From IMG/VR virus record IMGVR_UViG_2681813421_000003: a DNA stretch of 12,717 nt; one strand, given 5' to 3'. The DNA comes from a virus (taxonomy: Duplodnaviria; Heunggongvirae; Uroviricota; Caudoviricetes). Under the pieces are notes generated by a model. It was given only the letters and a program-made list of their open reading frames with translations, was not told the origin of the DNA and made no database searches. Position numbers and translations under genes: made by a program. Shown here piece by piece: positions 1 through 12,717 of the stretch (position 1 is the first letter of the stretch; each line of letters begins with the position of its first letter).

Positions 1-123
1 GAGCTGGTGGAGACGCGGGAACGACTGGTGAGAGACGCTGATGATTTTGTCGCAGTGGCGATCGCTGGTTTCAATCAGATGAATCGTGGTGGCCCGGCAG
101 GAAATGCCTTGGTGATGCACTAA
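1..123 (+). CDS. 3' end of an upstream gene (partial, unknown function)
   Basis: Frame 1 is open from the window edge to TAA at 121-123 (…ELVETRERLVRDADDFVAVAIAGFNQMNRGGPAGNALVMH*). Its position directly upstream of the replication initiator suggests a cII/YdaT-position gene, but there is no recognisable motif. Confidence 0.35.
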   Translation, partial: ELVETRERLVRDADDFVAVAIAGFNQMNRGGPAGNALVMH

Positions 124-146
124 AAGCACGGTGTTCGGAGTTTTTT

Positions 147-1094
147 ATGAGCAGCAAGCTTCATGGTCTTGTCTGGGAAGGGTGTGCCTTCACCGGCATG
201 ATCTTATCCAGGGTGGCAGTTATGGCTCGCCTTGCAGATTACAGCAATGACGAAGGTGTGTCATGGCCTGCAGTGGAGACCATTCGTCGTCAGATTGGGG
301 CAAAGAGTGAATCAACGGTTAAAGCTGCGATAGCAGAACTGGAAAAGAACGGCTGGCTGACGAAGGAGGAACGTAAGGTCGGTGGGCGTAATGAAAGCAA
401 TATCTACCGTCTTAATGTGGAAAAACTCGAAGCAGCAGCAGCGGCGGCGCGTGAGGCATATAAACCGAAAAGAAAAATTAGCCAGGCAAAAAATGACCCG
501 TCAAATATTGCCCCCTCAACGGTTAACCCATCAAATTTTGATGGATCAACCGTTGATAAAAAACAGTCGGATAGGGGGGCGATGGTTGGCCCCGATCCGT
601 CAGTATTAAAACCTGATCCGTCAGATAAAAGATCTTTTCGTCCGGAAGCTTCGCAACCGGACATGCAGACGGCTGAACAGGATTTTTTAACCCGACACCC
701 TGACGCGGTTGTGTTCAGTGCGAAAAAACGCCAGTGGGGTAGCCAGGAAGATTTAGCGTGTGCGCAGTGGATCTGGGGGCGAATCGTGAGTCTTTACGAG
801 CAGGCCGCCAGCGATGATGGCGAGATTTCGCGACCGAAAGAACCCAACTGGACCGCATGGGCCAACGACGTGCGCACAATGCGGATGCTGGATGGCAGAA
901 CTCACAGACAAATTTGTGAAATGTTTGGTCGGGTGCAGCGGGATCCATTTTGGGTAAAAAATATCATGAGTCCGTCAAAGCTTCGCGAAAAATGGGATGA
1001 ACTGGTTATCCGCCTGGGGCGTTCGTCTGTACAGCGTTGTGTGAATCATATTTCTGAGCCGGATACCGAAATTCCGCCGGGATTCAGGGGGTGA
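147..1094 (+). CDS. phage replication initiation / primosomal protein (lambda O-like, DnaT-like), N-terminal helix-turn-helix
   Basis: 315-aa ORF with a GGAG Shine-Dalgarno 6 nt upstream. The N-terminus (…VSWPAVETIRRQIGAKSESTVKAAIAELEKNGWL…) is typical of phage replication-initiator HTH domains. It lies immediately upstream of a DnaC-like loader and contains iteron-like repeats internally, as lambda O does. From memory it resembles Rac YdaU. Confidence 0.8.
   Translation: MSSKLHGLVWEGCAFTGMILSRVAVMARLADYSNDEGVSWPAVETIRRQIGAKSESTVKAAIAELEKNGWLTKEERKVGGRNESNIYRLNVEKLEAAAAAAREAYKPKRKISQAKNDPSNIAPSTVNPSNFDGSTVDKKQSDRGAMVGPDPSVLKPDPSDKRSFRPEASQPDMQTAEQDFLTRHPDAVVFSAKKRQWGSQEDLACAQWIWGRIVSLYEQAASDDGEISRPKEPNWTAWANDVRTMRMLDGRTHRQICEMFGRVQRDPFWVKNIMSPSKLREKWDELVIRLGRSSVQRCVNHISEPDTEIPPGFRG
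495..630. repeat. iteron-like direct repeats, putative origin of replication embedded in the initiator gene
   Basis: Four ~16-bp related repeats: gacccgtcaaatattg (495-510), aacccatcaaattttg (525-540), gatccgtcagtattaa (594-609), gatccgtcagataaaa (615-630), plus the palindrome gatcaaccgttgat (544-557). An A/T-richer stretch follows. The arrangement mirrors ori-lambda inside gene O. Confidence 0.5.
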
Positions 1095-1100
1095 CGTGTC

Positions 1101-1847
1101 ATGAAAAACATTGCGGCAGGTGGTGTTCTTGAGCGTATCCGTAAGCTGGCCCCACAGCATGTAATCGCGCCGTACCGGACAGTGGACGAGTGGCGCGAGT
1201 GGCAACTAGCAGAAGGGCGAAAACGTAGCGAGGAAATCAACCGCCAGAATCGCCAGTTGCGGGTGGAAAAAATCCTGAATCGTTCGGGCATCCAGCCTCT
1301 GCACAGCAAATGCTCGTTTGCGAATTATCAGGTGCAGAATGACGGGCAAAAACACGCGCTGAGCCAGGCAAAATCCATCGCTGACGAACTGATGACCGGG
1401 TGCACGAATTTTGTGTTCAGCGGTAAGCCGGGTACCGGAAAGAACCACCTTGCAGCCGCCATTGGTAATCATCTTCTGGCGAAAGGTCGCAGCGTGATTG
1501 TGATAACGGTGGCTGATGTGATGCTGGCGTTACACAACAGCTACGACAACAAAAACTCAGGCGAAAAATTTTTACAGGGGTTGTGTGATGTTGACCTGCT
1601 TGTCCTGGATGAAATCGGAATGCAGCGGGATACGCGCAACGAGCAGGTCACGCTGAACCAGATAGTCGACCGCAGAACGGCTTCGATGCGCAGTGTCGGA
1701 ATGCTGACAAACCTGAACCACGTAGCGATGAGTACGCTTCTTGGTGAGCGTGTAATGGACCGCATGGTCATGAACGGTGGTCGCTGGGTGAATTTTAACT
1801 GGGAGAGCTGGCGTTCGAATGTCAGGCACCTGAGGGTTGTGAAGTAA
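1101..1847 (+). CDS. DnaC-like replicative helicase loader (AAA+ ATPase)
   Basis: 248 aa with a Walker A motif (FSGKPGTGKNHLAAAIG) and Walker B (DLLVLDEIG). It is colinear with E. coli DnaC from MKN… through …LGERVMDRM…NFNWESWRS. From memory it resembles Rac YdaV. Confidence 0.9.
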   Translation: MKNIAAGGVLERIRKLAPQHVIAPYRTVDEWREWQLAEGRKRSEEINRQNRQLRVEKILNRSGIQPLHSKCSFANYQVQNDGQKHALSQAKSIADELMTGCTNFVFSGKPGTGKNHLAAAIGNHLLAKGRSVIVITVADVMLALHNSYDNKNSGEKFLQGLCDVDLLVLDEIGMQRDTRNEQVTLNQIVDRRTASMRSVGMLTNLNHVAMSTLLGERVMDRMVMNGGRWVNFNWESWRSNVRHLRVVK

Positions 1848-1868
1848 TTTTGTCCGGAGGAAATTTTA

Positions 1869-2630
1869 ATGGAAACCGTTTTTGACGCACTGAAAGCAAT
1901 GGGAAAAGCCACATCCATAGAACTTGCTGCGCGACTTGATATCAGTCGTGAAGAAGTGCTGAACGAACTATGGGAACTGAAAAAGGCTGGTTTCGTTGAT
2001 AAAAGCGCGTACACCTGGCGTGTGGCTGATAACAACGTTCAGCAGGAACAGCCAGCGCAGGCAGAACTGCCGGAAGAAACCTCCACGGCGACAGTAGCGA
2101 AAATCTCAGAGTGCGATTTAACCGCGACGATTGAACAACACGGACCACAAACGGCTGATGAGCTGGCTACATTGTTTGGTACCACATCACGCAAAGTGGC
2201 TTCAACGCTGGCAATGGCAATCAGCAAAGGACGCCTGATTCGTGCAAATCAGGACGGTAAATTTCGTTACTGCATGCCGGGCGATAATTTACCAGCAGAG
2301 CCGAAAGCAGCATCGGTAGCGGAAACTGATGGTAAAGCCTTTCCTCAGCCTGCATGTGTTGCGTTACCAGTACAGGAGGCTGCAACACAGGAAGATATTA
2401 AAACAGAAACTGTGGCGGACATTGTGCAGTCGCTGCCATCGTTTACTGAAACGCGAGCGGATGACCTGGTTTTACCATCGCTGCATATGGCAAACCGCGA
2501 ACTGCGTCGGGCGAAAAGTCATGCCCAGAAGTGGGAACGAGTCTGCGCCGCGCTGCGGGAGCTGAACAAGCACCGGGATATTGTTCGACATATTTTCGAT
2601 TCCTCCAGTCATATTGTGTCGGAAAAGTGA
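1869..2630 (+). CDS. hypothetical phage protein with N-terminal winged-helix-like domain (YdaW-position gene)
   Basis: 253-aa ORF with GGAGG 8 nt upstream. The N-terminal ~45 aa (…[29 protein letters not shown]) look like a wHTH; the rest is acidic and low-complexity. No function can be assigned from sequence. Confidence 0.65.
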
Positions 2631-2646
2631 TTCCTGGGGAGGGCTT

Positions 2647-3069
2647 ATGGCAAAAGTTTTTACACAAGAAGAGCGAGAAAAAATTAAAGGGCAGGTTGTT
2701 GAACTCGTACGCCAGAGTGGGCGTGAGACGTTACGGCAACTGGAAGTCAAGACAGGTGCGACAAGATATCTGATGAGCGTTCTCGCAAGAGAGCTGGTTG
2801 CCAGCGGCGATGTATACAACTCTGGTTACGGGTTATTCCCGTCTGAACAGGCGCGTAAGGACTGGCAAAATGCCCGTAAAAAACTATCAAGGGCAAAGGT
2901 GAAGAAACCGGTTGTGGTTGATCCTGACCTTATCTGGTCATTACCCGACGGAGAAATACGTCGTTACGACAGGCGTCTGAACATAATCTGTCGCGAGTGC
3001 CGGAAGAGTGAGGTTATGCAGCGAGTGCTGGCGTTTTATCAGGGTAATTTTCAGGAGGTGATGGCGTGA
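2647..3069 (+). CDS. hypothetical nin-region-like protein
   Basis: The tracked ORF 2581-3069 was trimmed to the ATG at 2647, which has GGGGAGGG 4 nt upstream. 140 aa, basic, with a C-terminal ICRECRK motif. Its stop overlaps the next gene's start (GTGA). Confidence 0.55.
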   Translation: MAKVFTQEEREKIKGQVVELVRQSGRETLRQLEVKTGATRYLMSVLARELVASGDVYNSGYGLFPSEQARKDWQNARKKLSRAKVKKPVVVDPDLIWSLPDGEIRRYDRRLNIICRECRKSEVMQRVLAFYQGNFQEVMA

Positions 3070-3479
3070 GGGTGAGGGTTTATATCGCTGGTCCGATGAC
3101 CGGGTATAAAAATTTCAACCGTGAGGCGTTCCACAAGGCGGAAGAGGAACTGAAACGGGAAGGGCATACAGTCTTGAACCCGGCAGTACTTCCGGACGGG
3201 CTGACACAGCCACACTACATGGATATCTGCATGGCGATGATTCGTTGCGTGGATGCGATTTACATGCTGCAAGGCTGGCAGCGGTCAGCAGGCGCTAAAG
3301 CGGAACTGGCTCTGGCGGAGAAGCTAGGGCATGTGGTTGTTTTTCAGAGGGGGCGATATGCCGATTCTCTGGTTTCAGGAGGTGTGGGAAAAAGAAATGT
3401 GGGAAGGTCTTGTGATTGTGGCCGAAACAGTTCTTTTATTATGGTCTGTGATTGCGTGTATTTTTATGATTTATTGTGA
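3066..3479 (+). CDS. DUF4406-like / nucleoside 2-deoxyribosyltransferase-like protein
   Basis: GTG start with AGGAGG 8 nt upstream. The N-terminal ~95 aa (VYIAGPMTGYKNFNREAFHKAEEELKREGHTVLNPAVLP…GWQRSAGAKAELALAEKLGHVV) match the family. The reading frame then runs ~40 aa further than expected for this family. Confidence 0.6.
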   Translation: MRVRVYIAGPMTGYKNFNREAFHKAEEELKREGHTVLNPAVLPDGLTQPHYMDICMAMIRCVDAIYMLQGWQRSAGAKAELALAEKLGHVVVFQRGRYADSLVSGGVGKRNVGRSCDCGRNSSFIMVCDCVYFYDLL

Positions 3480-3483
3480 ATGA
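3358..3483 (+). CDS. putative small hydrophobic peptide (41 aa), unannotated short ORF
   Basis: ATG at 3358 with AGAGGGGG 4 nt upstream. Encodes MPILWFQEVWEKEMWEGLVIVAETVLLLWSVIACIFMIYCE, with one predicted transmembrane segment. It overlaps the 3' tail of the DUF4406 ORF in another frame. Below the 60-aa cut-off of the ORF track. Confidence 0.25.
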   Translation: MPILWFQEVWEKEMWEGLVIVAETVLLLWSVIACIFMIYCE

Positions 3484-3510
3484 TGTGAATCTCGCGGTGG
3501 CCACTGAATT

Positions 3511-3553
3511 GCAACCATTACCCCCTGTGATGTAATTGTGGGGTAATGGTTGC
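3511..3553. repeat. perfect 14-bp inverted repeat with 15-nt spacer (hairpin or protein-binding site)
   Basis: gcaaccattacccc (3511-3524) pairs with ggggtaatggttgc (3540-3553). No T-run follows, so it is not a canonical intrinsic terminator. It sits in the intergenic gap upstream of the 3587 gene. Confidence 0.6.
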
Positions 3554-3586
3554 GCAGGCATAGCGACAGGACTGGATGAGAAAAAT

Positions 3587-4009
3587 ATGACGAAATTTAC
3601 CAGAGAGCAATTGATTGCTCATGCTAATGAAAGTGTGAAATCCATGAAATTTGCTGCGCGACAGACCGTGTTTAAGACTTCAAGAGTTGCCATTGAAATG
3701 GATCTTGCGCTTGCCCGTATTGCGCTTGCCTCACTTGAAGCAATGCCAGTTGCATGGTCCTGTGCTCACAATATGGTTTTGTTCAATGCTGAATCTGTTG
3801 CGGCATACGCAAAACACTCAGCCATTGCGCCAAAACCCCTGTACGCTGCGCAACCGGCATCACTTTCACATGAGGAAGAGTTGACAATGCTGGTTAAACA
3901 ATTGGTAAGTCAGTTGAAAAAAGCGAAACCAGATTGCAAATTACCGGATATGGCGATGGGGTATCTGGAGCGGAATGGGCTGATAAGCGCGGAGGATGTT
4001 TTACGATGA
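3587..4009 (+). CDS. hypothetical phage protein
   Basis: The tracked ORF 3536-4009 was trimmed to the ATG at 3587 (MTKFTREQLIAHANE…), because the 3536 start lies inside the inverted repeat. 140 aa, with no recognisable motif. Confidence 0.5.
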   Translation: MTKFTREQLIAHANESVKSMKFAARQTVFKTSRVAIEMDLALARIALASLEAMPVAWSCAHNMVLFNAESVAAYAKHSAIAPKPLYAAQPASLSHEEELTMLVKQLVSQLKKAKPDCKLPDMAMGYLERNGLISAEDVLR

Positions 4010-4089
4010 CCTGGCCGGAGGCATTCACAACGACAGGAATTGCAATGGCGGCAGCACTTGTTGTGTATTCGATTTGCCGCTGGGGATAA
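4006..4089 (+). CDS. putative small hydrophobic peptide (27 aa), translationally coupled
   Basis: ATGA stop/start overlap with the upstream gene. Encodes MTWPEAFTTTGIAMAAALVVYSICRWG. Below the ORF-track cut-off; there is no homology evidence. Confidence 0.2.
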   Translation: MTWPEAFTTTGIAMAAALVVYSICRWG

Positions 4090-4096
4090 AAACGGT

Positions 4097-4124
4097 TTGC
4101 AGTGAAAGGGGAGTTAAGTAGAAT
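4097..4124 (+). promoter_or_regulatory. putative sigma70 promoter of the hok transcript
   Basis: TTGCAG (4097-4102), a 16-nt spacer, then TAGAAT (4119-4124). The predicted start near 4131 places the 5' end exactly at the segment that is complementary to the 3' end of the locus. Confidence 0.4.
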
Positions 4125-4300
4125 TGCTGCGGGTGCTTGAGGCTATCTGCCTCAGGCATGAACACCAAAAGGCAGATAGAGAAAAGCCCCAGTTAACATT
4201 ACGCGTCCTGCAAGACGCTTAACATTAATCTGAGGCTCAATCTATGTCTCACAAATGTAGGTTAGCCTCTTACGTGCCGAAAGGCAAGGAGAAGCAGGCT

Positions 4301-4456
4301 ATGAAGCAGCAAAAGGCGATGTTAATCGCCCTTATCGTCATCTGTTTAACCGTCATAGTGACGGCACTGGTAACGAGGAAAGACCTCTGCGAGGTACGAA
4401 TCCGAACCGGCCAGACGGAGGTCGCTGTCTTCACAGCTTACGAACCTGAGGAGTAA
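4301..4456 (+). CDS. hok: Hok/Gef-family type I toxin (small membrane-depolarising peptide)
   Basis: 51 aa, MKQQKAMLIALIVICLTVIVTALVTRKDLCEVRIRTGQTEVAVFTAYEPEE, with the hallmark transmembrane helix followed by the conserved Cys and the RTG motif. It matches HokD/RelF-type peptides from memory. AAGGAG lies 9 nt upstream. An in-frame upstream ATG at 4244, with a GAGG Shine-Dalgarno, would give a 70-aa mok-like extended product. Confidence 0.85.
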   Translation: MKQQKAMLIALIVICLTVIVTALVTRKDLCEVRIRTGQTEVAVFTAYEPEE

Positions 4457-4463
4457 GAGACCA

Positions 4464-4485
4464 GGCGAGGGAGAAATCCCTCGCC
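4464..4485 (+). other. stable stem-loop with GAAA tetraloop in the hok 3' UTR
   Basis: ggcgaggga (4464-4472), loop gaaa, tccctcgcc (4477-4485): a 9-bp stem directly after the hok stop codon. Confidence 0.6.
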
Positions 4486-4524
4486 ACCTCTGATGTGTCA
4501 GGCATCCTCAACGCACCCGCACTT

Positions 4525-4546
4525 AACCCGCTTCGGCGGGTTTTTC
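4525..4546 (+). terminator. intrinsic terminator (hok 3' end); first copy of a duplicated 20-mer
   Basis: Stem cccgc / gcggg with a ttcg loop (4527-4540), followed by TTTTT. The 20-mer aacccgcttcggcgggtttt (4525-4544) recurs identically at 5372-5391. Confidence 0.7.
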
Positions 4547-4671
4547 GTCGCATAATGAGGTTGTAATTTTAGCTACCATTAGACTATCCTAAGGATCTCA
4601 AACAGATCTATTTTGCATCAAATTTGGTGCATGGCTTTGCCAATAATCGGAAAACAAAAGGACTCATTAGT

Positions 4672-4851
4672 ATGAGCTGCCCACTCAAAAAACACACGCG
4701 GTTGAGTATTCCGCCTCGCGATAAAAGCGTTGTGGCAGTCCCTCGCCCAGCGATTGATGAAAACTGCGCACATCGTGAACAAGTGAAAAATGCTTTTGAT
4801 TTCGGTTTTTCTCGTTATGAGAAAGCCATGGAAGAACTTTCAAAAGTGTAA
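4672..4851 (+). CDS. putative antitoxin partner of the Doc-family toxin (unclassified small protein)
   Basis: 59 aa, from the ATG at 4672 with AAAGGA 9 nt upstream; the tracked ORF begins at 4624 but has no Shine-Dalgarno. It ends 18 nt before the Doc-family gene. Not obviously Phd/YefM-like, so the call rests on position only. Confidence 0.45.
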   Translation: MSCPLKKHTRLSIPPRDKSVVAVPRPAIDENCAHREQVKNAFDFGFSRYEKAMEELSKV

Positions 4852-4869
4852 TGATGGGTATTGTGCTCT

Positions 4870-5355
4870 ATGGCTGAGATTGTTGAAGGAGTGCATTACC
4901 TTACGGTTGATGATCTTGTTGAAATCAATCGTTCCCTAATTGAATTACAGACGCCAGATGAGCCCGTTGGTGTTCTGAGTCCAGATAACTTAAGTTCTTC
5001 TCAGGCCCGTCCCAGCATGGTTCGATGGTATGAACAGACTAATGACATGTTTGTACTGGCATCGGTATTGATTGAAAGTCTGATTCAGAATCATCCGTTT
5101 GCTAATGCGAACAAACGAACAGCTATGATGGCTGGTTACGTCTTCTTGTTGTTGAATGGCTATGAGTTAACAGCACCAGGCGATGAAATCGTGGAAATGG
5201 CAGAGGGACTGGCCTGCAAAACCTATACTCGAGAAGATCTCGAGAACTGGTTGTGTTATTGGTCTCGCGCGTATGACAGCCGGGAATTATGTAAAACAGG
5301 CGCAACTATTGTTTTGTATGAAACTATCAAGCTTAAAATAGAACAGCAAAACTAA
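4870..5355 (+). CDS. Doc/Fic-family (death-on-curing) toxin
   Basis: 161 aa containing HPFANANKRTA, which fits the Doc-type motif HxFx(D/N)(A/G)NKR. Overall size and layout are typical of Doc toxins. Confidence 0.8.
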   Translation: MAEIVEGVHYLTVDDLVEINRSLIELQTPDEPVGVLSPDNLSSSQARPSMVRWYEQTNDMFVLASVLIESLIQNHPFANANKRTAMMAGYVFLLLNGYELTAPGDEIVEMAEGLACKTYTREDLENWLCYWSRAYDSRELCKTGATIVLYETIKLKIEQQN

Positions 5356-5371
5356 AGGTGCTTCCAATGAA

Positions 5372-5398
5372 AACCCGCTTCGGCGGGTTTTGTTTTTT
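5372..5398 (+). terminator. intrinsic terminator after the Doc gene; second copy of the duplicated 20-mer
   Basis: Stem cccgc / gcggg with a ttcg loop (5374-5387), followed by ttttgtttttt. Identical 20-mer to 4525-4544. Confidence 0.7.
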
Positions 5399-5470
5399 CC
5401 TGGCATTCTGGTTTACAATTCGCACGCCAGCCTGAACAACTGGCACCTGCTGCGCCAGCAGAGACAACCG

Positions 5471-5743
5471 ATGGCGCACAAAAACAAATTTCACAATTCT
5501 GATACCGACCTTGCCATCCGGCACGGGCGGCGTTCACACGCATTTAAAACCGACTGGTACCAACACCCACCATGTACTGAAGAACAGGCCGAATGGCTAA
5601 TTCATAACTACCGCAGGCGCGGATACGAGGTTAAGAAAGCCCTCAGCCTCGATTATCGTCACTGGATAATCTATGTCAGGCTCCCTTATTCCGAACGCCC
5701 ACCGCGTCCGTCCCGCACATTCCAGCAACGCATCTGGAGGTAA
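5471..5743 (+). CDS. hypothetical basic protein (orphan ORF at a deletion junction)
   Basis: The tracked ORF 5390-5743 begins inside the terminator, so the first plausible start is the ATG at 5471 (MAHKNKFHNSD…), giving 90 aa. Weak Shine-Dalgarno and no recognisable domain. Confidence 0.35.
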   Translation: MAHKNKFHNSDTDLAIRHGRRSHAFKTDWYQHPPCTEEQAEWLIHNYRRRGYEVKKALSLDYRHWIIYVRLPYSERPPRPSRTFQQRIWR

Positions 5744-5748
5744 CGTGC

Positions 5749-6183
5749 GGGTATTACTTCGACCTGTTCCGGTATCCCAACGGCACTGTTGATGTTTTCC
5801 GTGGCTGGCTGAGCTCACTGGGTAAAACCATTGCCTCAAAAGACGTGATGACCCGCACTGTGAAAATCAGCGGTGTGGGGCGTCCACATCTGGCAGAGGA
5901 AGGCACTGAAACCGTGAGCGTTACCGGGCTGACAGTAGCACCGGCATCTGCCAGTGTAAGAGTGGGAGCAACCACCACGCTGACCTTTACAGTAAAACCT
6001 GACGAAGCCAGTGACAAAGCGATCAGTGTGCATTCGACAGATCCACAGACTGCCACGGTGACCCTGAACGGGCTTGTGGCCACGGTGAAAGGCGTGAAGC
6101 AGGGCAGTGTCAGTATTGTGGGCATGACTTCTGACGGCGATTTTGTGGCAGTGGCTACGGTGGCTGTCAGCGCCGCAGGTTAA
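5749..6183 (+). pseudogene. V: major tail protein V, N-terminally truncated remnant (C-terminal Ig-like/Big_2 part retained)
   Basis: Frame 1 translation …[38 protein letters not shown]… is colinear with lambda gpV (…[39 protein letters not shown]…) through to the C-terminal Ig-like domain. There is no start codon or N-terminal domain; the frame is open from 5635 but similarity begins only around 5750. Confidence 0.7.
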
Positions 6184-6203
6184 CAGGACGATACTCATCA
6201 TTT

Positions 6204-6228
6204 GCCCCGGTTATCCGGGGCTTTTTTG
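6204..6228 (+). terminator. hairpin + T-run between V remnant and G
   Basis: gccccgg ttat ccggggc followed by TTTTTT (6222-6227). Confidence 0.5.
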
Positions 6229-6240
6229 CAGGTGGAGAAC

Positions 6241-6630
6241 ATGATGTTTCTGAAACAGGACACGTTTAATTATGAAAAACAGTCCGTGGTGCTCAGTGAG
6301 CTGTCCGGGCTGCAGAGAATTGAATATCTGACGTTTGTTCAGCAGCGAACGGCAAAGTTTGATGCCGGGGAGGGAGAGCTGCCGGGGGCTGAACGACAGA
6401 TTGCTTTTCTGCGGATGGGGATGGATATCAATGCCTGGCTGGTTTCCCGCTCACTGTGGAATGCGGAACAGTCTCAGGATGTTGAGACGCTTTACGCATC
6501 CGTTATTACAACATGGTCGTATGATGCCCTGGGGGCGGGGGCAGAGATGGTTCTGTCGCTGAGCGGTATGGGAGCCATTGAGAATGCCGGGGATTTGGAG
6601 CATGAGGTGCTGACGCCGGAAAAGTCCTGA
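6241..6630 (+). CDS. G: tail assembly chaperone G
   Basis: MMFLKQDTFNYEKQSVVLSELSGLQRIEYL… aligns with lambda gpG (MFLKTESFEHNGVTVTLSELSALQRIEHL…). The tracked ORF was trimmed to the ATG at 6241; 6244 is an alternative start, with GGAG upstream. Confidence 0.85.
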   Translation: MMFLKQDTFNYEKQSVVLSELSGLQRIEYLTFVQQRTAKFDAGEGELPGAERQIAFLRMGMDINAWLVSRSLWNAEQSQDVETLYASVITTWSYDALGAGAEMVLSLSGMGAIENAGDLEHEVLTPEKS

Positions 6631-6968
6631 CGCGGGAAATGCAGTTTGTCATGCGGCTTGCCCGGGAGTTCCGGCGGGCAGACTGGCGGCGGATGCTGTC
6701 GGAAATGTCGGCCACTGAGCTTGGTGAGTGGGGCGATTATTTCCGGATGCAGAGCTTCAGTGATGTGTGGATGGATGCGCAGTTTGCCTCGCTGAAGGCA
6801 TTGATCGTGAGAATGGTGTCCGGCAGCAGTGATGCTGTGGTGGCTGATTTCAGCCTTTTACCGGAAGAGAACGGGATACCGGAGCGAACGGACGAAGAAC
6901 TGATGCATCTTGGGGAAGGTATTTCCGGAGGTGTGCGTTATGGACCAGATAGCCAACCTGGTCATTGA
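6618..6968 (+). CDS. T: tail assembly chaperone T segment, expressed as G-T fusion by -1 frameshift
   Basis: An ORF in the -1 frame relative to G overlaps the G 3' end with no stop between. A candidate slip site is G GAA AAG at 6618-6624, just before the G stop codon. The arrangement is the conserved lambda G/GT one. Confidence 0.6.
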   Translation, partial: GKVLTREMQFVMRLAREFRRADWRRMLSEMSATELGEWGDYFRMQSFSDVWMDAQFASLKALIVRMVSGSSDAVVADFSLLPEENGIPERTDEELMHLGEGISGGVRYGPDSQPGH

Positions 6969-9900
6969 TTTGGGGATTGATGCGGCAGAGTTTAAAAATG
7001 AAATTCCCCGTATCAAAAACCTTCTGAATGGTGCAGCCAGCGATGCAGAACGGTCTTCTGCCCGTATGCAGCGTTTTATGGAGCGTCAGACTCAGGCCGC
7101 CCGGCAGACAACGCAGGCGGCTTCTTCGGCTGCAACAGCCGCATCCGTCCATGCGCAGACGGTGGAGAAGAACGCACAGGCCCATGAACGCATGGCCCGT
7201 GAGGTGGAGCAAACCCGCCAGCGCATGGAGGCACTGAGCCAGAAAATGCGCGAGGAACAGGCGCAGGCCATGGCTCTGGCGGAGGCTCAGGATAAAGCGG
7301 CTGCTGCGTTTTATCGTCAGATTGACAGTGTGAAACAGGCCAGTGCGGGGCTGCAGGAATTACAGCGTATTCAGCAGCAGATCCGACAGGCCAGAAACAG
7401 CGGCGGGATTGGTCAGCAGGATTATCTGGCGCTGATTTCTGAGGTTACGGCGAAAACCCGTGTTCTTACACAGGCTGAGGAAGAGGCTACCCGACAGAAA
7501 GTGGCGTTTATCCGTCAGCTTAAAGAGCAGGCAACCCGCCAGAATCTTTCATCTTCTGAGTTGCTTCGCGCCAGGGCAGCCCAGCTGGGGGTAAGCGGTG
7601 CTGCAGAAGTGTATATCCGCAAAATGGAGCGGGCAGGAAAAGCCACGCATTCGCTGGGTCTGAAAAGTGCAGCAGCCCGCCAGGAGATAGGCGTTCTGAT
7701 AGGTGAACTGGCCCGCGGCAATTTAGGGGCGCTGAGGGGATCCGGGATAACGCTGGCTAACCGTGCCGGATGGATAGACACACTGATGTCACCGAAAGGC
7801 ATGATGCTTGGCGGGGTTATTGGCGGTATTGCCGCGGCCGTCTATGGTCTGGGTAAAGCCTGGTATGACGGTCAGAAGGAGGGGGAAGAATTTAACCGCC
7901 AGCTGTCGCTGACGGGGCATTATGCCGGAGTCACTGCCGGGCAGCTGTGGGTGCTCAGTCGTGCTATTTCCGGGAATGGTATCACGCAACATGCTGCAGC
8001 CGGTGCGCTGGCTCAGGTGGTGGGGAGTGGTGCATTTCGTGGAGGTGATATCGCCATGGTGGCGAAAGCTGCCGCGCAAATGGAACGTTCAGTGGGGCAG
8101 TCTGTCAGCGACACCATAAGTCAGTTTAAGCGACTGAAGGATGATCCGGTAAATGCAGCCAGGACGCTGGATAATGAACTGCATTTCCTGACTGCCACCC
8201 AGCTTGAACAAGTCCGTGTTCTCGGGGAACAGGGGCGTGCCAGTGATGCTGCCCGGATCGCCATGTCAGCGCTGGCAGAGGAAACCGGTAAACGCACATC
8301 TGATATTGATAATAATCTCAATGCGCTGGGCAGTACGCTGCAAACCTTATCTGACTGGTGGAAGCAGTTCTGGGATGCCGCCATGAATATCGGGCGTAAT
8401 GATTCCCTTGATGCGCAGATTGCGGCGCTGCAGGAAAAAATTCAGCGTGCGAAAAAATCGCCCTGGACAAATGCATCCACCACAGTGGAATACGACCAGC
8501 AGCGCCTTGATGAACTTCAGGAGAAAAAGCGCCAGAAAGATTTACAGGATGCAAAAGCGCAGGCTGAACGAAATTATCAGGAACAGCAGAAACGCCGGAA
8601 TGCTGAAAATGCTGCGCTGAACCGGATGAATGAAACGGAGGCGGCGCGACATCAACGTGAAATTGCGCGCATCAATGCCATGCAGTATGCCGACCAGGCG
8701 GTCAGGGACGCAGCGATACAGCGTGAAAATGAACGTTACAAAAAAGCCATTAAGAAAAAAACATCTGAAAACCGCAATGATGAAGCCACCCGGTTGCTGT
8801 TGCAGTACAGTCAGCAGCAGGCGCAGGTGGAGGGGCAGATTGCCGCCGCCAGACAGTCCGCGGGACTGACCACGGAAAAAATGACAGAGGCGCATAAGCA
8901 GCTTCTGGCCCTGCAGCAGCGTATCAGTGATCTGGCGGGTAAAAAGCTGACAGCAGATGAAAAAAGCGTGCTGGCGCATAAGGATGAGTTGATTCAGGCA
9001 CTGACGCTGCTGGATACAAAACAGCAGGAGCTGCAGAAGCAGACGGCGCTGAATGACCTGAAGAAAAAATCCATTCAGCTTGCCAGCCAGCTGGCGGAAG
9101 AGGAACGGGCTCTGCGTCAGCAACATGACCTGGATATCGCCACAACAGGGATGGGGGATAAACAGCGTCAGCGGTACCAGACACAGTTCAGTCTGCAACA
9201 GAAATATCAGCAGCAAATGGAGCAACTGGAGCGTGACAGTAAACAGAAAGGAACATACGGCTCAGATGAATACCGGGATGCTGAGCAGATGCTGACAGAC
9301 AGTCTTAACCGGCAACTGAACGAAAACAGACATTACTGGCAGGAGCAGGAACTGATGCAGGCAGACTGGAAAAACGGTGCCATGCGGGCGTTTCAGAATT
9401 TTACAGAGAGTGCGGATAACGCGGCAGGTACCGCTGAGCAGATGTTTACAGCGGCATTTAACAGCGCAGGTAATGCACTGGCGACGTTCTGCACCACCGG
9501 AAAACTGAACTTCAAATCTTTTACCGCCTCGCTCCTTTCTGATCTGGCAAAAATCATGTCGCAGATGGCCATGATGCAGGCGGTGAAGGGGATTGGTTCG
9601 GCGTTTGGCTGGGGGAGTGCAGCAGCTGCCAGTGTGACGCCAAATGCGGATGGCGGTGTTTATCAGTCTGCTGATTTGAGTCGCTACAGTGGCACGGTGG
9701 TTAACCGTCCGACGTTTTTTGCTTTTGCAAAAGGCGCGGGTGTGATGGGAGAAGCGGGGCCTGAAGCCATTCTGCCATTGCGTCGTGGTGCTGATGGCAA
9801 GCTGGGTGTTGTGGCGGATATTGGTGGTTCAGGTATGGTGATGTTTGCCCCGCAGTACAACATCGAGATCAATAACGATGGTACGAACGGGCAGATAGGT

Positions 9901-10005
9901 CCGGCTGCCCTGAAGGTGGTTTATGACCTCGGGAAAAAAGCAGCAGCGGACTTTATGCAACAGCAGGCCCGTGATGGTGGTCGGTTAAGTGGAGCATATC
10001 GGTAA
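6940..10005 (+). CDS. H: tail tape measure protein
   Basis: 1021 aa from the ATG at 6940 with GGAGG upstream. Long Q/A/R/E-rich coiled-coil body and a Gly-rich C-terminal region. It lies immediately after G-T and before M, as lambda H does. Confidence 0.9.
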   Translation: MDQIANLVIDLGIDAAEFKNEIPRIKNLLNGAASDAERSSARMQRFMERQTQAARQTTQAASSAATAASVHAQTVEKNAQAHERMAREVEQTRQRMEALSQKMREEQAQAMALAEAQDKAAAAFYRQIDSVKQASAGLQELQRIQQQIRQARNSGGIGQQDYLALISEVTAKTRVLTQAEEEATRQKVAFIRQLKEQATRQNLSSSELLRARAAQLGVSGAAEVYIRKMERAGKATHSLGLKSAAARQEIGVLIGELARGNLGALRGSGITLANRAGWIDTLMSPKGMMLGGVIGGIAAAVYGLGKAWYDGQKEGEEFNRQLSLTGHYAGVTAGQLWVLSRAISGNGITQHAAAGALAQVVGSGAFRGGDIAMVAKAAAQMERSVGQSVSDTISQFKRLKDDPVNAARTLDNELHFLTATQLEQVRVLGEQGRASDAARIAMSALAEETGKRTSDIDNNLNALGSTLQTLSDWWKQFWDAAMNIGRNDSLDAQIAALQEKIQRAKKSPWTNASTTVEYDQQRLDELQEKKRQKDLQDAKAQAERNYQEQQKRRNAENAALNRMNETEAARHQREIARINAMQYADQAVRDAAIQRENERYKKAIKKKTSENRNDEATRLLLQYSQQQAQVEGQIAAARQSAGLTTEKMTEAHKQLLALQQRISDLAGKKLTADEKSVLAHKDELIQALTLLDTKQQELQKQTALNDLKKKSIQLASQLAEEERALRQQHDLDIATTGMGDKQRQRYQTQFSLQQKYQQQMEQLERDSKQKGTYGSDEYRDAEQMLTDSLNRQLNENRHYWQEQELMQADWKNGAMRAFQNFTESADNAAGTAEQMFTAAFNSAGNALATFCTTGKLNFKSFTASLLSDLAKIMSQMAMMQAVKGIGSAFGWGSAAAASVTPNADGGVYQSADLSRYSGTVVNRPTFFAFAKGAGVMGEAGPEAILPLRRGADGKLGVVADIGGSGMVMFAPQYNIEINNDGTNGQIGPAALKVVYDLGKKAAADFMQQQARDGGRLSGAYR

Positions 10006-10334
10006 TGGAGACGTTTCACTGGAAAGTGCGCCCGGATATGAATGTGGTATCAGAGCCGAAAGTGGTGACAGTGAAGCTGGGCGATGGTTATGAACAGCGT
10101 CGTGCGGCGGGACTGAATAACCAGTTGTCGACTTACAGCGTGACGATACGTGTTCGTAAATGTGAACACCCATCTTTGAAAGCCTTTCTGGAACGGCACG
10201 GTGGCGTCCGCGCATTTCAGTGGACGCCACCTTATGACTGGAAGCCGATCACGGTGGTTTGTCGTAAATGGTCGGCAAGCGTGGGGGCGCTGTGGGTAAC
10301 CATAACGGCAGATTTTGAACAGGTCGTGGCATAG
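10005..10334 (+). CDS. M: minor tail protein M
   Basis: METFHWKVRPDMNVVSEPK…GDGYEQRRAAGLN…TYSVT…WTPPYDW…FEQVV matches lambda gpM along its length. Its start overlaps the H stop (TAATG). Confidence 0.9.
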   Translation: METFHWKVRPDMNVVSEPKVVTVKLGDGYEQRRAAGLNNQLSTYSVTIRVRKCEHPSLKAFLERHGGVRAFQWTPPYDWKPITVVCRKWSASVGALWVTITADFEQVVA

Positions 10335-10343
10335 GAGGCCCTG

Positions 10344-11042
10344 ATGCAGGATATTCCACAGGAAACACATCATGAGACGACACGCCTTACTCAGTCAGCC
10401 CAAGTGGTGCTCTGGGAAATCGATCTGACAGAGGTCGGTGGTGAACGTTATTTTTTCTGTAATGAGCAGAACGAAAAAGGTGAGCCGGTCACCTGGCAGG
10501 GGCGGCAGTATCAGGCATACCCCATTCAGGGGACGGGATTTGAACTGAACGGTAAGGGCAGTGCTGCCCGTCCGACACTGACGGTCTCTAACCTGCACGG
10601 CATGGTCACCGGGATGGCGGAAGACCTGCAGAGTCTGGTCGGCGGAACGGTGGTCAGGCGTAAGGTTTACGCCCGCTTTCTGGATGCGGTGAACTTCGTC
10701 AACGGAAACAGCGACGCCGATCCGGAGCAGGAGGTGATCAGCCGCTGGCGCATCGAGCAGTGTAGCGAACTGAGTGCGGTCAGTGCCTCCTTTGTGCTCT
10801 CCACACCGACGGAAACGGATGGTGCTGTTTTTCCGGGGCGCATCATGCTGGCCAACACCTGCACCTGGACCTATCGCGGCGATGAGTGCGGTTATCACGG
10901 TCCGGCTGTCGCTGATGAATATGACCAGCCGACGTCCGATATCACGAAGGATAAATGCAGCAAATGCCTGAGTGGTTGTAAGTTTCGCAATAACGTCGGC
11001 AACTTTGGCGGCTTCCTTTCCATTAACAAACTTTCGCAGTAA
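10344..11042 (+). CDS. L: minor tail protein L (Fe-S cluster tail tip protein)
   Basis: 232 aa with AGGAGG 5 nt upstream. It carries the conserved C-terminal cysteine cluster (CTWTYRGDECGYHG … CSKCLSGCKF). Confidence 0.9.
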   Translation: MQDIPQETHHETTRLTQSAQVVLWEIDLTEVGGERYFFCNEQNEKGEPVTWQGRQYQAYPIQGTGFELNGKGSAARPTLTVSNLHGMVTGMAEDLQSLVGGTVVRRKVYARFLDAVNFVNGNSDADPEQEVISRWRIEQCSELSAVSASFVLSTPTETDGAVFPGRIMLANTCTWTYRGDECGYHGPAVADEYDQPTSDITKDKCSKCLSGCKFRNNVGNFGGFLSINKLSQ

Positions 11043-11046
11043 TCCC

Positions 11047-11211
11047 ATGACACAGACAGAATCAGCGATTCTGGCGCACGCCCGGCGATGTGCGCCAGCG
11101 GAATCGTGCGGCTTCGTGGTGAGAACGCCGGAGGGGGAAAGATATTTTCCCTGCGTGAATATCTCCGGTGAGCCGGAGGCGTATTCCGGCGGTGGCATTC
11201 AGTGGCGCTAA
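11047..11211 (+). pseudogene. K: tail assembly protein K, truncated after ~46 residues
   Basis: [46 protein letters not shown] is a typical K N-terminus. It is then followed by unrelated residues (SGGGIQWR) and a stop, so the peptidase core is absent. Confidence 0.75.
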
Positions 11212-11245
11212 GCATGAGAGAGAGCATACTGATATTTACTCCTCA

Positions 11246-11473
11246 TGCCGTCTGATAGTGCGGAAAAACGGTGCTGAAATTTATAACCGTACCGCGCTGG
11301 ATAATACGCTGATTTACAGTGGCGTTATTGATATGCCTGCCGGTCACGGTCACATGACGCTGGAGTTTTCGGTATCAGCATGGCTGGTGAATAACTGGTA
11401 TCCCACAGCAAGTATCAGCGATTTGCTGGTTGTGGTGATGAAGAAAGCCACCGCAGGCATCAGTATCAGCTGA
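11246..11473 (+). pseudogene. J: host specificity protein J, C-terminal remnant only
   Basis: …[75 protein letters not shown] matches, from memory, the extreme C-terminal receptor-binding end of lambda-family J. There is no upstream J coding sequence. The junction coordinate is approximate. Confidence 0.6.
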
Positions 11474-11491
11474 ATTTTATAACCCATATAC

Positions 11492-11518
11492 GGGCGCCAG
11501 AAATGGCGCCTTTTTTAT
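11492..11518 (+). terminator. intrinsic terminator after the J remnant
   Basis: gggcgcc agaaat ggcgcc followed by TTTTTTATT. Confidence 0.6.
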
Positions 11519-11540
11519 TGCAGAAAAGCGAGAGGTAATT

Positions 11541-12140
11541 ATGCGTAAATTATGTGCTGTTATTCTGTCCGCAGCCATCTGTCTGTCCGTATCCGGTGCG
11601 CCTGCATGGGCGTCTGAACATCAGTCCACACTGAGCGCGGGGTATCTTCATGCCCGTACGAACGCTCCCGGCAGCGATAATCTGAACGGGATTAACGTGA
11701 AATACCGTTATGAGTTTACGGACACGCTGGGGCTGGTGACGTCATTCAGTTATGCCAATGCCAAAGATGAGCAAAAAACGCATTACAGCGATACCCGCTG
11801 GCATGAAGATTCCGTGCGTAACCGCTGGTTCAGCGTGATGGCGGGGCCGTCTGTACGCGTGAATGAATGGTTCAGCGCGTATGCGATGGCGGGTATGGCT
11901 TACAGCCGTGTGTCGACTTTCTCCGGGGATTATCTCCGCGTAACTGACAACAAGGGGAAAACGCACGACGTGCTGACCGGAAGTGATGACGGTCGCCACA
12001 GCAATACCTCTCTGGCGTGGGGAGCTGGCGTGCAGTTTAACCCGACCGAATCCGTGGCCGTTGATGTCGCTTATGAAGGCTCCGGCAGCGGTGACTGGCG
12101 TACCAACAGTTTCATCGTGGGTGTCGGCTATAAATTCTGA
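11541..12140 (+). CDS. lom: Lom/Ail-family outer membrane beta-barrel protein
   Basis: 199 aa with a signal peptide (…SVSGAPAWA/SE). It is colinear with lambda Lom, including GINVKYRYE, SVMAGP, YAMAG and the C-terminal VDVAYEGSGSGDWRT..FIVGVGYKF. Confidence 0.9.
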   Translation: MRKLCAVILSAAICLSVSGAPAWASEHQSTLSAGYLHARTNAPGSDNLNGINVKYRYEFTDTLGLVTSFSYANAKDEQKTHYSDTRWHEDSVRNRWFSVMAGPSVRVNEWFSAYAMAGMAYSRVSTFSGDYLRVTDNKGKTHDVLTGSDDGRHSNTSLAWGAGVQFNPTESVAVDVAYEGSGSGDWRTNSFIVGVGYKF

Positions 12141-12166
12141 TTAGCCAGGTAACACAGTGTTATGAC

Positions 12167-12193
12167 AGCCCGCCGGTTCAGGCGGGCTTTTTT
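12167..12193 (+). terminator. intrinsic terminator after lom
   Basis: gcccgcc ggttca ggcgggc followed by TTTTTT. Confidence 0.65.
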
Positions 12194-12195
12194 GT

Positions 12196-12205
12196 GGGGG
12201 GGGGG
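12196..12205. repeat. G10 homopolymer tract immediately upstream of the stf start codon
   Basis: Ten consecutive G (12196-12205), then aat, then the ATG at 12209. Confidence 0.9.
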
Positions 12206-12208
12206 AAT

Positions 12209-12717
12209 ATGGCAGTACTGATTTCAGGTGTACTGAAAGACGGTGCAGGTAAGCCGATACAAAACTGCACCATTCAGCTAAAGGCCAGGCGCAACAGCAC
12301 CACGGTGGTGGTGAACACAGTGGCCTCAGAAAATCCGGATGAAGCCGGGCGTTATACAATGGACGTCGAGTATGGTCAGTACAGCGTCAGTCTGTTGGTG
12401 GAGGGGTTCCCGCCGTCACACGCCGGGATTATCACCGTATATGAGGACTCAAAGCCTGGCACACTGAATGATTTCCTCGGTGCAATGACGGAGGATGATG
12501 CCCGTCCGGAGGCACTGCGCCGTTTTGAGCTGATGGTGGAAGAGGTGGCGCGTAACGCCTCCGCGGTGGCACAGAACACGGCAGCCGCGAAGAAGTCAGC
12601 CAGCGATGCCAGCACATCAGCCCGTGAGGCGGCAACCCGTGCGACTGATGCTGCAGGCTTAGCACGTGCCGCCAGCACGTCAGCCGGACAGGCCGCATCG
12701 TCGGCTCAGTCAGCGTC
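12209..12717 (+). CDS. stf: side tail fiber protein, N-terminal part (runs off the window)
   Basis: MAVLISGVLKDGAGKPIQNCTIQLKARRNSTTVVVNTV…DVEYGQYSV…FPPSHAGIITVYEDS… is near-colinear with the lambda Stf N-terminus, followed by the Ala/Ser-rich repeat region. There is no stop within the window. Confidence 0.85.
   Translation, partial: MAVLISGVLKDGAGKPIQNCTIQLKARRNSTTVVVNTVASENPDEAGRYTMDVEYGQYSVSLLVEGFPPSHAGIITVYEDSKPGTLNDFLGAMTEDDARPEALRRFELMVEEVARNASAVAQNTAAAKKSASDASTSAREAATRATDAAGLARAASTSAGQAASSAQSA

Follow-up and report, generated by a model that had tools for sequence, protein, structure and literature searches.

It is textbook knowledge that lambdoid prophages can be disarmed by internal deletions. 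The lambdoid prophages integrated at ompW (PPompW) are widespread in E. coli, and all those analyzed were defective through deletions and gene inactivation (PMC8112680). The published set derives from STEC O145:H28 and related EPEC and STEC strains and carries type III effector loci together with an internal attB near attR (PMC8112680). The stretch of DNA analyzed here, referred to as the window (12,717 bp), is the entire contig JPXJ01000066.1 of assembly GCA_000773555.1 from strain F6097, an enterotoxigenic E. coli (ETEC) O6:H16 sequenced as a 292-contig Illumina draft in 2014 (JPXJ00000000; PMC4271155). Its content corresponds to the early-right region and the tail region of an ompW-integrating type of lambdoid prophage. 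It resembles the published PPompW prophages in its lambdoid gene order, in having relatives at the ompW locus, in appearing defective through internal deletions (PMC8112680), and in a module formed by a 90-codon gene (ORF90) and ydfU, which was matched in LC567818, LC567820 and LC567822. It differs from them in its ETEC O6:H16 host, and in a junction between fragments of ydfU and the major tail gene V (ydfU'::V', junction 1) that was absent from 5,426 complete RefSeq E. coli genomes, 50,697 phage records and the GTDB species representatives.

The cryptic prophages Qin and Rac of E. coli K-12 share hokD, ydfU and an unannotated ORF90 homologue with the F6097 element, and dicB and ydfC were present on the longer contigs of the element. 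The replication genes of the element are presumably YdaU/YdaV-like, as in Rac. Like Qin and Rac, the element would be locked in through the loss of morphogenesis genes. Qin is generally seen as an ancient, heavily decayed element, with a copy of IS2 and several pseudogenes, and differs in keeping ydfU and a Q homologue. The F6097 element, in contrast, appears recently decayed: its flanks were 100% identical to intact relatives and no more than two clean deletions were visible in the window.

The window is a whole draft contig, with the integrase end of the F6097 prophage, its attachment sites and the remaining genome outside view. The ORF list and Pfam matches gave a lambdoid gene order, with replication genes and a nin-like region followed by V-G-T-H-M-L-K-I-J-lom-stf. 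The window was collinear with the ompW prophage of strain 025542-1 (L003) and with phages mEp460, cdtI and Ayreon. Other relatives used for comparison were the ETEC strains 2014EL-1346-6 (L001) and E1739 (L002) and the assembly GCA_014583555.1 (L014).

Window positions 4800-6700 were used as a megablast query against the 5,426 complete RefSeq E. coli genomes and the 50,697 phage records. The matches formed two sets, one stopping at query base 975 (window 5774) and the other beginning at query base 974 (window 5773), and no single record in these collections spanned both sides. The left set was annotated as death-on-curing toxin, hypothetical proteins and DUF968 domain-containing protein, and the right set as major tail protein V, G and T. 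Three-way alignments with the 100% identical relatives L014 and L007 placed junction 1 at 5773-5774 (no strand). The left parent reads CCGGTA/CCGGAAC and the right parent CAAATA/TCCCAAC, with the window reading CCGGTATCCCAAC; the bases TA at 5773-5774, present in both parents, were the only ones in common. An earlier note, made from the letters of the window, had described a deletion scar at 5398-5760 with the break near 5750, and had proposed alignment to lambdoid prophages and a search for microhomology. The scar is real, but its break, at 5773/5774, falls 13 bases past the right end of that interval, and the microhomology is limited to TA.

The frames of ydfU' and V' differ at junction 1. 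Translation from the ydfU start therefore enters the wrong frame of V and gives a fusion ORF of 15 codons (5745-5792, plus strand) that ends with TGA at 5790-5792. Its peptide, MRVLLRPVPVSQRHC, is predicted to be junk. Comprising this out-of-frame peptide and a promoterless fragment of V, the junction probably encodes nothing functional. An Rfam scan of the window matched sok only, with no match at junction 1.

An intrinsic terminator-like hairpin (5370-5398, plus strand), with a 9-pair stem and a T run, lies 3' of the doc toxin gene. This hairpin marks the left edge of the ORF90-ydfU module common to many lambdoid phages, and phage matches to the module began at window 5372/5373. ORF90 (5471-5743, plus strand) is intact and matched phrog_1212 over its whole length (profile positions 1-66 of 66, E 1.3e-36); Pfam and NCBIfam gave no match, and PHROGs alone assigned the protein, which RefSeq labels hypothetical. 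The exact protein occurred in 117 blocks of the assembly collection, with a complete DUF968 gene directly downstream in all five of the places shown, and the ORF90-DUF968 order was conserved in L001, L002, L003, L013-L017 and K-12 Qin. In K-12 MG1655 the homologue is unannotated and lies on the minus strand between rem and ydfU, directly upstream of ydfU (3310-3585 of the Qin locus L018, approximately NC_000913.3 1644309-1644584); it was 78% identical over 92 aligned residues with gaps. Identity of ORF90 with Rem of Qin was considered and rejected, similarity to Rem being nil and the K-12 homologue being a separate ORF. The stop codon of ORF90 lies 30 bases before junction 1. Although the earlier note had regarded 5471-5743 as an orphan of unknown origin at the junction, the homologue check it advised identified a real, conserved phage gene that was not created by junction 1 and sits in its native position as the upstream neighbour of ydfU/DUF968.

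What the same note had called an accessory region is, on its junction side, the start of this DUF968/ydfU-like gene. The remnant (5745-5774, plus strand) consists of the GTG start at 5745 and nine further codons of 349 (VRVLLRPVPV), the position at which the DUF968 CDS begins in L001 and L002. The same residues open the 349-aa DUF968 protein of L014, and K-12 YdfU begins VRVLLRPVLV. With only 10 codons left, no DUF968 domain was found. On the minus strand, a 63-codon antisense ORF (5333-5524; RefSeq hypothetical protein WP_001394303.1) overlaps the terminator and the start of ORF90 and is probably a spurious call.

On the right of the junction, V resumes at codon 112 (Y-P-N-G...) of its 247 codons. 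The fragment V' (5773-6183, plus strand; codons 112-247) was, from 5773 on, 100% identical to the intact V of L006, L007, L008 and L010. The translation of 5746-6180 matched phrog_41 (major tail protein) at profile positions 110-245 of 245 (E 4e-57), and V' matched Phage_TTP_12 (PF16461) only at positions 94-135 of 135, with a complete Ig-like Big_2 domain (PF02368). Compared with lambda gpV, the fragment thus covers Big_2 entirely and the tube domain in its final third, but encodes residues 112-247 only and does not have the native start. Codons 1-111 were absent, there was no complete tube domain with its own start codon, and V' would presumably be unable to form a tube protein. The abrupt onset of V similarity without an N-terminal part, as noted earlier, agrees with both profile matches; the accompanying remark that no start codon is present holds for the native start of V, but in-frame GTG (5845) and ATG (5848) codons exist. 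Because these are the first in-frame starts, gene callers report a 111-aa, Big_2-only ORF from the ATG (5848-6183). An exact-protein look-up returned matches for this ATG-start ORF and for the tape measure protein. The same look-up gave no match for the GTG-start ORFs of V' (5845-6183) and of the J fragment described below (11168-11473), since gene callers had picked other starts.

A second terminator-like hairpin (6204-6229, plus strand) lies 3' of V, where a terminator is annotated in phages Ayreon and mEp460. It is followed on the plus strand by intact G (6244-6630), T (6639-6968), tape measure gene H (6940-10005), M (10005-10334) and L (10344-11042), as given by the ORF list. The G-T-H-M-L block was nucleotide-identical to that of intact relatives, and the deletion is therefore recent enough for these genes to be still intact. 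They are now without a late promoter and Q, and are situated downstream of the two terminator-like hairpins at 5370-5398 and 6204-6229.

A second deletion junction, K'::J' (junction 2), was located at 11182-11185 (no strand) by alignment with the parents L006 and L001. Its microhomology is the 4-base TATT, rising to 8 of 9 bases when TATT(T)CCGG is counted. About 4.4 kb was lost here (24417 to 28812 in L003), taking with it the remainder of K, the whole of I and the greater part of J. The remaining K' (11047-11185, plus strand) retains the first ~46 of the 247 codons of the tail tip gene before running out of frame into J, with a stop at 11211. J' (11186-11473, plus strand) retains the last ~96 codons of the tip attachment protein, which encode the C-terminal receptor-binding domain (PF12421, profile positions 39-135 of 135, E 4e-23). 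Both junctions are thus out of frame, and the second deletion confirms that the element is defective.

Exact parents were available for both flanks of junction 1. Window 1-5774 was 100% identical to the ompW prophage of the O6:H16 ETEC relatives L001, L002 and L014, all of which continue into the full 349-codon DUF968 gene, rusA and Q. Window 5773-11189 was, the second junction aside, 100% identical to L006, L007, L008 and L010, which encode an identical tape measure protein and carry terminase, portal and capsid genes upstream of V; the head and tail set was complete through U in L006 and L008. In L006 the genes run portal, protease-capsid, cement, a Gifsy-2-family gene, Z, U, V, G, T, H, M, L, K, I, J. 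The last 1,963 bp of L014 overlapped L006 at 99.95% identity, so that the two parents form one continuous intact prophage. The left arm adjoins ompW, int and xis in L001 and L002, and an identical tail block in L004 adjoins yciE/yciF/trp on the other side of the ompW locus. In L003, which is diverged but complete, the gene order can be followed in full, from ORF90-DUF968 through V to the tail fibre, within one prophage between ompW and yciE. The right end of the window (11894-12717) was 99.8% identical to lom'-stf of the ompW prophage in L002. Because the ompW-side arm, the yciE-side tail block, the overlap of the parents and the match to L002 all point to one element, the ydfU'::V' junction very probably arose as a deletion within a single ompW-type lambdoid prophage by illegitimate recombination. 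The single internal deletion proposed earlier, joining the early-right region to the middle of V, accords with this.

The size of the deletion was estimated as 16,841 bp from a composite of L014 and L006, on which the window maps to 4531-10304 and 27144-32561; the ancestor so represented is assembled from contigs of two strains and is not one sequenced molecule. A value of 15,894 bp from a composite of L014 and L007 was rejected, as L007 itself does not have 947 bp (a cement::U fusion). The same stretch spans ~15.3 kb in L003, the difference being accounted for by a smaller cargo region. The early part of the loss, read from L014, comprises ydfU/DUF968, rusA and the late antiterminator Q. Between Q and the tRNA genes a cargo block was lost (L001 23198-26319; L014 12527-15648) that encodes a Ser/Thr kinase, a PP2C phosphatase, a small ORF and a DNA methyltransferase; this block is kept in other deletion variants. 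Three tRNA genes (annotated in L001), two holins, an M15 endolysin, DUF1441 and the large terminase subunit come next. With the second terminase subunit, portal, protease-capsid, head-completion genes, Z, U and V codons 1-111 also missing, essential lysis, packaging and assembly genes have been lost. That Q and the genes for lysis, terminase, portal and capsid do not occur between the nin-like region and V had been read correctly from the window, as the ORF list and the relatives show. No head or lysis genes were found on the 19-kb contig of GCA_012388215.1 (L005), which carries the same junction and reaches from dicB as far as the tail fibre gene, whose end it includes.

Near-identical copies of the ompW prophage (at least 99.6%) were compared with the L014+L006 composite (L001/L013/L017, L002/L015, L016, L004 and L007). 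They carried at least six different deletions, of which four were large and not nested. The series includes a holin'::J'::stf fusion (left end at composite 16775), a join of the region after the tRNA genes to lom' (16383), and a join of endolysin' to the 3' part of stf (17245). Further members are V'::G' (510 bp) with a loss from just after K to tfa', the cement::U deletion of L007 (947 bp), and the window allele with ydfU'::V' plus K'::J'. The packaging and head genes are removed by all four of the largest losses. The starting points of three of these fall within 900 bp of one another, in the interval from the tRNA genes to the endolysin gene, so that in these three the lysis cassette is cut or missing. 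Since the large deletions are not nested, an intact progenitor must have given rise to each of them separately. That ETEC strains have repeatedly been under strong selection to disarm this prophage, with its immunity, toxin-antitoxin and cargo genes preserved, is a tentative and rather doubtful reading of this pattern. If it held, the lineage would offer a natural series of deletions in which the rate and the targets of prophage domestication could be measured; this would illustrate a known idea and no new mechanism.

Three other origins of the junction were weighed against an internal deletion. Faulty assembly of two prophage fragments into a chimeric contig is a concern here, as the source is a 2014 Illumina draft of 292 contigs (PMC4271155) and lambdoid prophages are rich in repeats. 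The junction 36-mer, however, was found in four loci, namely the window itself (L009) and three other assemblies: GCA_012388215.1 (L005), a 16-kb contig of strain F5995 (L012; JPXL00000000, PMC4271155) and Logan SRR6077263 (L011). The four come from different projects and pipelines: two are NCBI drafts of 2014, a third NCBI draft has its own accession, and the last is the Logan assembly. Because the same 36-mer occurs in independent assemblies and a 2-base overlap cannot drive a graph-based assembler to a mis-join, an artefact has next to no probability, and the junction is a real allele inherited within an O6:H16 ETEC sub-lineage. Recombination between different lambdoid prophages at different sites, with chromosomal deletion or inversion, would give a hybrid joint, and is not without precedent: ompW/ydfJ prophage recombination and inversions have been described in some strains (PMC8112680). 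No complete RefSeq genome matched the tail block (5773-12717) at more than 95% identity, with 100% matches available for the left arm, and the contig ends at the start of repeats. Such exchange normally proceeds through long homology, though, and the flanks here share two bases. The left parent L014 runs into terminase sequence 99.95% identical to that of the right-arm parents, and both the identical tail block of L004 at ompW/yciE and the match of 11894-12717 to L002 lom'-stf place the right arm in the same prophage. A hybrid joint is thus very unlikely.

The intact G, T, H, M and L genes, with Lom and a tail fibre gene retained, could also be taken for a designed or selected, compact architecture, either satellite-like or tailocin-like, in which a partial tail module is under early control; the independent loss of lysis, packaging or head genes by several near-identical copies might be seen in the same light. 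Such a tail module would be unworkable, however, with V missing its first 111 codons, Z, U and I gone, and K and J reduced to ~46 and ~96 codons. Both junctions are out of frame, the intact tail genes are explained by the recency of the deletion, and other variants retain different, non-overlapping parts. This explanation is more improbable still than a hybrid joint. A further candidate, in which the left breakpoint lay at an internal prophage attB and arose through integration and faulty excision, was rejected: the described attB sites lie near the effector loci and attR, and not at ydfU (PMC8112680).

For the favoured reading, deletion within one ompW prophage, the sharing of only two bases between the flanks implies joining by illegitimate recombination. 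One event would have removed ~16.8 kb, from ydfU codon 10 to V codon 112, between ends sharing only TA. Replication slippage is one possible route and, following a break, microhomology-mediated end joining another; the sequence cannot separate the two, and a 2-base microhomology is no more than chance expectation and singles out no repair pathway. With Q, the lysis cassette, terminase and head genes gone, late-expression killing of the host, packaging and particle formation are predicted from sequence to be abolished, which would leave the element locked in the chromosome. The 16.8-kb loss, together with the K'::J' deletion, supports the view, also taken in the earlier note, that this is a cryptic (defective) lambdoid prophage. 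Overall, the deletion and the cryptic state from that interpretation were upheld, and corrections were needed as to where the break lies, what the left flank is and how ORF90 is to be classed.

The junction is a case of ordinary prophage decay, of a kind already well known. For annotation, 5848-6183 (the Big_2 ORF), 11192-11473 and 5745-5792 are gene fragments, and ORF 5471-5743 is a real gene. As a clonal marker, the junction 36-mer cleanly identifies an O6:H16 ETEC sub-lineage that includes F6097, F5995 and at least two further isolates. With exact parents on both sides, the locus is a well-resolved case of illegitimate recombination at 2-base and 4-base microhomologies, and the set of sister deletions could be used for studies of prophage decay.

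The window retains O/P-like genes for replication, together with hok/sok, a doc-type toxin gene, Lom and the 5' part of the tail fibre gene. On the longer contigs that share junction 1, there are also dicB, a LexA-like repressor, Cro and YdaT. The hok/sok type I toxin-antitoxin locus spans 4131-4456, with an Rfam sok match of 121.6 bits (4131-4306) and a hokD ORF that ends at 4456. The Doc-family toxin gene (4870-5355; TIGR01550, E 1.5e-37) is preceded by a 59-codon phrog_2208 gene (4672-4851), which could be its antitoxin. Upstream, a DUF4406 ORF (3066-3479) matched the intact relatives up to ~3350 only and then ran into unrelated sequence; its equivalent in L001 and L002 is marked partial in RefSeq, with the C-terminus missing. 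A third small scar is one possible explanation of this break at ~3350, a mosaic boundary another.
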